From: Aplysia californica
Lineage: Eukaryota
Direction of reading: 5' to 3'
Assembly (NCBI RefSeq): GCF_000002075.1
Contig: NW_004797415.1
Location: forward strand, 947,548 to 1,011,547
DNA length: 64,000 nucleotides
Position 1 is the first letter of the stretch; the number at the start of each line of letters is the position of its first letter. Shown in pieces: positions 60,901 to 63,161 of the stretch. Made by a program: the position numbers and the translations under genes. The notes beneath the pieces were generated by a model that had not been told where the DNA came from, made no database searches, and saw nothing but the letters and a program-made list of their open reading frames with translations.

Positions 60901-62590
60901 GGCATCCCCGTGGAATGTGCTGAGATACAGCTTTCAGAATATTTTCGGTGACTTGTTCATTAAAAAGATCAGCATCTTCTGTTTCTTCTATGCTGGAGAG
61001 CAATTCGTTTGAGGTCTTTTCGTATTCTGCCCAGTTGGCTTTCTTAAAGTTCCATCGAGTTCTCCGAGGGTGGTTCAATGCAGGTGGGGAGGTGATCTGT
61101 ATAAAGATAGGCCTGTGATCACTTCCTATGTCATCAATCACTTCGATGCGACAGGAGTTTTTAATGTCGGATGAGCAGATGGTGAGATCAGGCCGGCTGA
61201 GAGTCAAGTGGGCTCTGTGAAGTAAGGTAGGAGTTGAGTTGACATCTTGTAATACAGATAGGTTGCTGGTTTCGCACAGCTCCTCAATCTTTCGGCCTGT
61301 GCCGTTATAGTTGATGTAGCCCCATTCTGGAGAGTGGCCATAAAAGTCACCCGCACAAATGGTTTTTTCGTAGCTAGCTGCTTGCAGATCAGACAAGTCG
61401 CATGTTGTCTGTGGGGGGCTGTAAACATTATAAAGTGTGTACTTCCTACCAATGTGCCATATGGTGGCCTTCTGGATATCTGTCGGTTGGGCAGATGATA
61501 AGTGTACAACATCTCCCTGAACATCATTTCACAGGTAAGTGACTACACCACGGCATCCTGTGCATGTGCAGGCATAACTGGTGTATCCTGTGAGGTTCAG
61601 GTCCGTACCTTTGTGTAGGGTTTCTTGAAGGAGGGCAACATGAATCTGTCTGTCCTTCAGTACTTTGAGGAGTTCTGTTTTCTTGTTCCTCAAACCACAG
61701 ATGTTGAGTTGCAAGAGGTTGAGGGAACTCTTCTTCTGGTTGGGGATGTAGTTTGCTCCCTTCTCACGCCGAGAGCTTTTCGGTGCTGGTATAGCACTGT
61801 TTCTGTGTGTATCACCAGTAGCTGACTTGTCGCTCAGAGCAGCCTGGTGATTGCGCTGCCTGGCGTGGACCTTGTTTAACGAGGCGACGTCTGAGCTCGC
61901 ATGTAATTTATTTCTTTGTGTCATGGCATTGTGGACTGGGGTGTCTGTGGACTGTCTGCCCACCCTGAGAAGAGGTCATTCATGTTGAGGATAGGAAGGT
62001 ACTAGGAGTTTTCAAGAGACTGGAAAGACCTAACTGCCCTGTGACCGTGTAATTCCGGTAGGGTTCACGTTGCCCATTCCCCGCCACCAATGGCTACTGG
62101 CTAAGGTTTTCGACTCTTTCATGAGGTATTGGCCAAGTGGGGAAGCCATTGGATCGTCACGTCCTGGTTCGTTGTGCCTTTACTAAGAGGTTTCACGGCT
62201 AGAAAGCAAGTCAGGCATTCTGCTCGGTCCATCTCTTGCACCCAGACACTCTCAAACTGGCTGGTACCTTCTCAACCACAGAGGGTGTGTTGATAAAAGT
62301 AGTAGAGGTGTTAGGCAGATTAGACACCCACTCAAGGGAGAGTAGGAGCGTGTTAGTGAGGAGCATAGCGTCTACCACGCATCGCCTGCTCCCATCCTGT
62401 TGTTTTAACCCCTCTAGGAAACGGGGGGGTTGGTTTGTTGGCGCCAACAACTCGCCACTCGCCAGAGCCGTGTCAGTGAGGACAGGGACCACCACGGGCA
62501 GGTACGGTTGGCTGGATTGGGAGAAGCTGTTTGAGACGCTTAGGCATTTCTCAATATTTAAATGAGACCTATCACCAGTCCTTGATCCCT
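57968..62590 (-). mobile_element. Full-length Ingi/I-group LINE, single-ORF type (APE-RT-RNase H-CCHC), multiply frameshifted
   Basis: QLNICG, LLQET, GDFYGH, GSDH; APGPD, YRPISLTS, QAGFR, FVDLQQAYD, GLPQGS, YADD; YTDGS, FTDS, WVPGH; CPLC..HHLFHC; (AAC)n tail fused to stop; TSD AAAATGATGTAT at 57956-57967 and 62593-62604 (16 bp with 1 mismatch); no ORF1 seen. Confidence 0.95.
62443..62590 (-). ncRNA. Candidate HDV-like self-cleaving ribozyme at the LINE 5' end
   Basis: P1 AGGGATC/GGTCCCT, P2 GCCAAC/GTTGGC, P3 ACC/GGT, L3 TGCCCGT, P1.1 GC/GT, P4 hairpin, J4/2 CGAG; starts at the TSD boundary. Confidence 0.75.
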
Positions 62591-63161
62591 TTAAAATGAT
62601 GTATAGCATGACTGATTTCTGAGCGTGTGGAGAGCTTTATGCCCATTACAAAAAAAAGGACGTTTTAGGGAAAACAGTTGCGCTTTTTTTCACTAAGAGG
62701 AAGGGGAATGTCATCTTTGTGAGTGTTTTTGAACGTGTTCTGCTATTGACAGGGACATAAGACCTTCAATTTGGGAAAGTAGACATTTCAAAGTACTCGA
62801 ATCCGTTAACAGCCTAATTTCGATCTAAGACAAAAAAAAAGACGTCATTTGACCATGGCCTTTCCCCACATTATGCCTTTACTAAAATGATTATTGTTTT
62901 CTTGTCGTGTTTTGGGAATTTTTAGACTACACGTTATTTACTAAGGTTGCTGATACTATTTATGGTCAACAGTGTTATTTCTGCTTGATTTCTACCTCTG
63001 AATATAATGTTTTTAAGAAAATGTAAGTTTATTACCTTTTAGATGTTGTGCTCTTTTCATTCTTCGCTTTATTTTGTCTCCATAAGCTTGCCTACCACCA
63101 TTTCTTACTTTTGACATTAAATCATGTTCTCAGTACTGTTCTTTTTCTTCTTCAGAACTCA

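Follow-up and report, generated by a model that had tools for sequence, protein, structure and literature searches.

Element structure and genomic context

The window analysed here is a 64-kb stretch of the Aplysia californica genome. Its minus strand carries a 4.6-kb Ingi-type LINE that is full length, with a broken ORF. The initial annotation had described a full-length Ingi-like LINE headed by an HDV-like fold, and both parts of this description were borne out. The single ORF remnant (57981–61924) encodes an APE endonuclease, a reverse transcriptase (RT), an RNase H and a C-terminal zinc knuckle (zf-RVT), and is interrupted by premature stops near 61530 and 59374 and by single-base insertions near 60563 and 60269. 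It is preceded by a 5' UTR (61925–62590), which measures about 700 nt in the family and lacks 34 nt at 62384 in the window copy, and is followed by a (CAA)n tail (57968–57980). The target-site duplication (TSD; upstream copy 62593–62604, downstream copy 57956–57967) can be read as 12 exact nt (62604-62593 = 57967-57956) or as 16 nt with one mismatch, reaching 62589. A natural copy, L061, retains an open frame of 1342 codons, and the window copy is 97.6% identical to it.

The layout is of Ingi type (single ORF with APE, RT and RNase H; no ORF1). Because RNase H is present (E 3e-16), the element does not belong with the Vingi clade, which lacks this domain according to PMC13708176. In a comparison by eye, RT motifs and their spacing closely resemble those of I2_AC. 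I2_AC and Ingi-1_AC both carry the label 'Ingi mollusc' in RTclass1 (PMC3708506, supplement file 2), and neither is identical to any of the four families described below (A, that of the window copy, to D). Ingi-1_AC has an active 2A peptide, whereas no NPGP occurs in the N-termini read here (P0001 and five others). An N-terminal 2A is also a feature of the trypanosome members, though not of every Ingi element. Among the 120 homologues listed, the sole named relative was from the gastropod Littorina. Placement in the Ingi clade is supported, at the level of sequence likeness, by I2_AC and by Pr77 blocks in family D.

Outside the element, the plus strand holds the first coding exon of a CIAO1-like WD40 gene (63157–63295), whose best natural PDB matches are CIAO1 chains. 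The element had been placed antisense to CIAO1 and about 570 bp from this exon; it indeed lies on the opposite strand, at a measured distance of 567 bp. Further CIAO1-like WD40 exons are found 8-11 kb beyond the first (L329:8200-9800, L330:1-450). As the gene's 5' UTR exon was not located, the element may lie either in an intron or upstream. Nothing was found that points to a role of the element in CIAO1 expression.

An HDV-like fold at the first base of the element

The HDV-like double-pseudoknot fold spans 62443–62590 on the minus strand and begins at the first base of the element, with predicted cleavage 5' of 62590. Every helix that had been proposed is present at its coordinates: P1 pairs 62590-84 with 62490-84, P2 62512-07 with 62448-43, P3 62503-01 with 62493-91 and P1.1 62499-98 with 62483-82, and L3 spans 62500-62494; the J1/2 hairpin is there too. 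The nested arrangement P1-P2-P3-P1.1-P4 follows the correct order, with a weak P4 in the window copy (0 to -4.7 kcal/mol) and a P2 mismatch near P3, where the 3-nt gap between the two helices (62506-04) faces 62451-49 in two G.U pairs and one mismatch. A weak P4 and an imperfect P2 are described as common in R2 ribozymes in the text of PMC3774820. The conserved U and G of L3 are present (T62500 and G62495), the G being one whose importance is stated in PMC3774820, and the C-G pair of P1.1 is C62498-G62483. Compared with the Drosophila R2 core primer printed in PMC3414825, the window core ACC-L3-GGT differs at two L3 positions.

The 71-nt J1/2 domain (62513–62583) is closed by a 7-bp helix (62581-75/62520-14) that places P1 beside P2, and it also offers a competing partner for the 5' strand of P1. 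The plain minimum free energy (MFE) fold of the window head (z -0.05) is not the ribozyme and contains no pseudoknot; in it the 5' strand of P1 is taken up by J1/2, and imposing P1 on the window copy carries a penalty of about 4 kcal/mol. By convention, HDV-like ribozymes have a 7-bp P1 that opens with a purine-pyrimidine pair, usually G.U. This first pair is A-U in the window copy and G.U in 70 of 84 family A copies.

J4/2 (62451–62454) reads CGAG, with the predicted catalytic C at 62454. This departure from CGAA had raised doubt about activity. The CGAG is real but not specific to this copy, as a G at 62451 occurs in 78 of 84 family A copies, and CGAA appears in family B. A 7-nt tandem repeat around the catalytic C creates a second candidate at 62461; one repeat unit is missing from 5 of the 84 copies. 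The C at 62461 is disfavoured, since P2 pairing would be lost, and family B argues against it by having CAAA there and CGAA at the position of 62454.

An HDV descriptor, composed after the sequences of families A and C had been viewed, gave a single match when both strands of the 64-kb window were scanned, at 62590/C62454. Dinucleotide shuffles of 62590-62400 gave 1 match in 5000 with the relaxed form and 0 in 5000 with the strict form, and 1.39 Mb of shuffled element gave one match. An Rfam scan of the window end and of the heads of families A–C returned no HDV ribozyme match, although such a match is not something the structure itself demands.

The family begins at the first base of P1

Searches of the genome with the 5' region brought up 198 candidates and those with the 3' end 1797; in each case 40 were scored. 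The head was matched exactly 68 times and the core 95 times with at most two mismatches (controls 0). The family A set comprised 100 copies including that of the window, with 7 core matches left out. Counts of TSDs refer to exact duplications of at least 10 nt and leave out L094, which has a microsatellite flank.

Alignment from G1 was obtained for 77 of the 100 copies, and 73 start with GGGGATC. The initial annotation had held that its reading would fail if family 5' ends extended beyond 62590. No extension was seen: among the 90 copies aligning from positions 1-3, G stands at +1 in 80, while the sequence upstream is mixed, with no base above 35 of 90 at any position from -1 to -6. Exact TSDs stop directly before G1 in 29 of 39 cases and within 2 nt of it in the others; their length across the family is 10-15 nt, with a mode of 13. 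The suggestion that the A in place of G at 62590 came from target microhomology fits this picture: because the TSD of the window copy extends over the position with one mismatch, the A is probably target-derived, a later G-to-A change being the possible alternative.

Descriptor matches were found in 42 of 84 family A heads, all starting at G1; failure in the other half is expected for decayed copies. Four recurrent stem variants occur in family A, and pairing is kept in all of them.

Three further families and the conservation of P1 pairing

A distant-protein search revealed three more families in the genome, B, C and D, which also start at an HDV-like P1. Family B has 53% amino acid identity to family A and a head that is 81% identical over the first 350 nt, with CGAA in J4/2; in its P1 and P1.1, G.U pairs have become A-U. 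The head of family C (41% amino acid identity) is unrelated in sequence and forms a P1 of its own; its P4 is strong, and P3 contains a C.A mismatch. Family D (about 50%) starts with a C7/G7 P1 opening on C-G. Both family D loci scanned scored 30.4-30.5 bits against Rfam HDV RF02682 (E 0.03), under the gathering score of 44. Blocks of the L1Tc primers printed in PMC3185411, where the L1Tc ribozyme is reported to cleave at +1 in vitro, recur identically in family D, one of 10 nt in 21 of 30 copies and one of 12 nt in 24 of 30. Heads of families B and C matched the descriptor in 19 and 10 of 30 copies, respectively, all starting at G1. In HDV-like ribozymes a purine-rich turn comes after the catalytic C of J4/2; from the position of this C, the sequence reads CGAG (A), CGAA (B), CAGA (C) and CTAA (D).

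Within each of the four families P1 pairs at 7 of 7 positions, against 1-4 of 7 when strands of unrelated families are combined, and the four families hold three different P1 sequences. Pairing kept with differing sequences is the strongest sign that the 5' end is determined by folding rather than by sequence. The covariation of P1 and P3 proposed as a check thus held for P1 in all four families. It did not hold throughout: the cores of A and B differ by one-sided changes only, which are weak evidence given the tolerance for G.U pairs, and family C retains its C.A mismatch in P3.

Chance pairing in a G/C-rich 5' end would be compatible with the missing Rfam match, the absence of a folding z-score signal and a descriptor made after viewing the sequence. 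The shuffle rates, the position of the matches at G1 in three families and the Rfam and L1Tc matches in family D all speak against it, and we regard it as extremely improbable. HDV-like ribozymes cleave 5' of nucleotide 1 in a Mg2+-dependent way and leave a 5'-OH. Such self-cleavage is predicted and likely for the head RNA of family A, while for the window copy, with its A1, its prospects appear evenly balanced.

Metagenome relatives were also inspected. At the 11 of 79 loci with at least 300 nt upstream of the endonuclease, no descriptor match was found at the head. One of these loci, L163, has a P3-L3 core 14 nt into its contig, accompanied by a P1 of just 4 bp; some 0.5 matches of this kind are expected overall.

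Several further features of these families were recorded. The likeness of the family B and A heads (L251 and L266 vs window 62590-62240) suggests either strong constraint or an exchange of 5' ends between the two families. Of the 30 family B loci, 10 go back to a single insertion duplicated in tandem; the ten copies (L279, L280, L284-L290; G000:C102, C1589) share one flank, as if the insertion had been amplified inside a larger tandem unit with a spacing of about 8-20 kb. In family D heads (L345-L374) the C-run/G-run length of P1 varies by copy (6-25 C), which suggests slippage during copying, and a clean P1 is lost in many copies. Family C copies L302 and L303 carry 3-6 extra G between TSD and G1, as from untemplated additions to cDNA ends. 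At L314:1781-1889 (G000:C88), a complete U6 snRNA (Rfam 103 bits) is joined without a gap to the 5' end of a family C element, a U6-LINE chimera that an Ingi-type RT produced by template switching. Finally, a 5' UTR block of 150-180 nt is 70-85% identical between elements distantly related in protein (L253:665-850, L169:20-202, L165, L199); it shows apparent long-range stems and has no Rfam match.

RNA reads and the origin of the 5' end

Reads covering 61600-63400 numbered 87, 64 and 82 in three raw poly(A) RNA runs and fell almost entirely on the plus strand. No pile-up of read ends at G1 was seen in these runs, and 33, 16 and 24 reads, respectively, ran past 62589 into other flanks. The reads carry short leaders ending GG(G). 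These resemble template-switch tags, in which case the reads would be antisense to the ribozyme and uninformative. This suggests that reads crossing G1 are sense reads of host RNAs that hold the element backwards. Were the library of the opposite type, with reads antisense to the transcript, they would represent uncleaved element RNA.

Such reads would suit an internal promoter that starts transcription at G1, in which case the sharp end is a transcription start and the fold a vestigial or slow ribozyme. The weak P4, the rival pairing of P1 and the CGAG may all slow cleavage, and Pr77 of L1Tc is reported in the text of PMC3383444 to be both promoter and ribozyme. A promoter would have no reason to track P1, yet the end coincides with the first P1 base in four families with three P1 sequences and a G or C start, and the stem variants keep their pairing. 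We therefore infer that cleavage rather than a promoter sets the 5' end, and consider the promoter improbable as the explanation.

A predicted helix between the start codon and the 3' end

The start codon (61924-61922) lies within a 10-nt arm (61922–61931, minus strand) whose exact reverse complement is found near the 3' end (58020–58029). We refer to this predicted helix as the clasp; its 5' arm is also the hot spot of the short-copy ends described below. A predicted hairpin just before the start codon (61936–61967) is similar in family B. Helices between the last 75 nt and the whole element were ranked and compared with 300 shuffled tails; a separate RNAduplex scan gave no decision. In 6 of 8 families the AUG region is complementary to a 3' segment that lies 57-40 nt before the end of the element. 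This helix is the best in families A (10 bp) and B (13 bp) and third in family D (10 bp); among metagenome relatives it is the best in L163 and L179 and third in L169. In these six, 0-3 of 300 shuffled tails did as well.

Each clasp-bearing family has its own arm sequence. Pairing the arms of different families gave scores of 10-20, against 21-32 for their own partners, and was lower in every row except that of L166. The family C helix was not significant (rank 15; 32 of 300 shuffles), and L166 has no clasp at its computed AUG (rank 161), its third-best helix covering an ATG 30 nt upstream. L178 and L180 entered without an assigned AUG. From these predictions the clasp is likely to form in vivo.

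A predicted H-type pseudoknot follows 25 nt after the AUG (61866–61899). Across 9 related sequences, in which it lies 25-29 nt after the AUG, 4 of its 9 pairs are changed on both sides, a covariation score reached by 0 of 500 shuffles; this register was the second of two that were counted. The motif is conserved as nucleotides and read in different frames by different families. A 2A peptide was rejected as its cause, given these frames and the missing NPGP.

Two observations concern the same region. In family A, an ATG homologous to the start codon of family C and L175 opens a two-codon frame (61929-61921), the stop of which overlaps the real start codon (AUGA overlap). In L163, L178, L180, L190 and L199, which are related more distantly, another hairpin with a common CCTCGA loop follows soon after the AUG, within the ORF, and may correspond to the pseudoknot.

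Copies that consist of the 5' UTR alone

The 39 TSD-flanked family A copies comprise 26 that are 5' UTR alone (about 700 nt), 4 bipartite copies and 9 long ones. Breaks at the start codon were found in 40 of 93 5'-intact copies of family A, 8 of 30 of B, 7 of 30 of C and 13 of 30 of D; in family A the break points lie mostly at -9 to +6 around the start codon. A poly(A) signal was rejected as the cause, as most of the copies end upstream of the AATAAA.

According to PMC5786205, Ingi, Vingi, RTE and R2 elements all have known bipartite derivatives, and in the tree some of the short copies form small clusters. Both would agree with one or a few non-autonomous subfamilies of the RIME/NARTc kind, spread from master copies. 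Yet a single clade of short copies was rejected (AU p 7e-77), which largely refutes a single non-autonomous master, and in a tree of 60 copies short and full ones are interleaved, requiring 16 state changes (branch support mostly low). In addition, the junctions differ copy by copy, and the same hot spot is used in four families. Short copies originate repeatedly, one by one, and we judge descent from masters to be quite unlikely.

The junctions bear on how they arise. Of 24 cleanly parsed short-copy junctions, 8 carry additions of at least 3 nt made of C and A only, and 6 have no extra letters. Family B short copies end in letters like B's own AAAGT tail, and some copies retain 16-70 nt of the true 3' end, so that retained lengths form a continuum of 70, about 16 and 0 nt. 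We favour, with some reserve, template jumping as the source of the short copies.

The main rival to jumping from the tail is direct internal priming at the AUG linker. Under this alternative the ribozyme acts as described, short copies derive either from such priming or from RNA that was cleaved or shortened close to the start codon, and the clasp has a function in translation control alone. The linker resembles the tail in being single-stranded and A/C-rich, junctions without extra letters would be expected, some short copies share 1-6 nt with the target, and the text of PMC5322556 describes similar events for L1 tailless retropseudogenes. The C/A-only additions weigh against internal priming, though slippage on the linker could also give such letters; the AAAGT-like ends in family B and the continuum of retained 3' ends weigh against it as well. 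Taken together, we consider this alternative rather unlikely, though clearly less so than the master copies.

Proposed mechanism

Taken as a whole, we think it probable that the family begins at G1 of an HDV-like fold by which its RNA is cut free, and that a clasp between the 3' end and the AUG loops this RNA, from which the RT often jumps. By analogy with L1TcRz and R2, a host read-through transcript would fold at the element head and cleave before G1, leaving an RNA that has no cap and whose 5' end is fixed. Pairing of the 3' arm over the AUG would then hold the tail beside the end of the 5' UTR. Target-primed reverse transcription would begin on the tail and either copy through, usually stopping early, or jump to the partner strand, giving UTR-only and bipartite copies. 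The usual early stop would explain the roughly tenfold excess of 3' over 5' candidates.

A broader proposal, offered tentatively, is that Ingi-clade RNAs in general are capless and released by a ribozyme, and that a closed loop, formed by the 3' strand masking the AUG and the pseudoknot 25-29 nt downstream, replaces cap and poly(A). Such a loop might switch between translation and reverse transcription and hold both ends at the target, where the RT would routinely skip the ORF. The ribozyme may then descend from one ancestor of trypanosome and animal elements and still be recognizable letter for letter.

Comparison with known systems

Ingi 5'-end ribozymes are already known from trypanosomatids, and Ingi is named among the ribozyme-headed clades in PMC5786205; the architecture of ribozyme plus clasp appears to be new. 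No paper about the clasp, or about an Ingi ribozyme in an animal, came up in our literature search; these elements may already be contained in tables or supplements of Ruminski 2011, Webb 2009 and Kojima 2011. L1TcRz/Pr77 of trypanosomatid L1Tc/ingi (described in the texts of PMC3185411, PMC4035085 and PMC3383444) is likewise an HDV-like fold that starts at +1 of an APE-RT-RNase H LINE with one ORF. The window family differs in its 148-nt fold with a 71-nt structured J1/2 and in its G1.U rather than C1-G pair, and its activity is predicted only. It further differs from L1Tc/ingi in its 700-nt UTR, (CAA)n tail, lack of a 2A in the N-termini read and animal host; TSDs are 11-12 nt in L1Tc/ingi and 10-15 nt, with a mode of 13, here. 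The predicted ribozyme carries the known Ingi rule over to members from animals; through its Pr77-like head, family D connects these by sequence with the trypanosome ribozyme.

The HDV-like ribozymes of R2 (PMC3774820 and PMC3414825, in the passages on their structure) have nearly the same P3-L3 core, a long J1/2 and a variable P4, and their 5' junctions reflect the cleavage site. R2 is an rDNA-specific RLE element that often cleaves in upstream 28S, whereas the window element inserts, with TSDs, at sites unrelated to one another.

NARTc, RIME, R2 SIDEs, Persaeus and Vingi derivatives likewise keep the 5' end with the ribozyme and lose the ORF. In contrast to derivatives of the NARTc/RIME type, most short copies here are nearly without a 3' part, arise singly and break at an AUG helix complementary to the 3' end. 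Template jumping has been proposed for Persaeus in PMC6740152, the main text of which does not contain the word 'complementar'. L1 tailless retropseudogenes are also 3'-truncated and TSD-flanked and end at single-stranded hot spots, as reported in PMC5322556. According to the same text, 3'-truncated L1 copies are a minority (90 vs 708 full length) and mostly cellular RNAs are affected, whereas short copies here outnumber full ones (26 vs 9 of 39 TSD-defined 5'-intact copies).

PMC5786205 gives the reason why RTE, Ingi and R2 make bipartite derivatives as not known. An AUG/3'-end helix with full sequence compensation offers a concrete, mutable cause. The clasp bears equally on how translation starts on an uncapped, non-polyadenylated LINE RNA, and on the design of Vingi/RTE gene-writing templates, which use both UTRs as described in PMC13708176.
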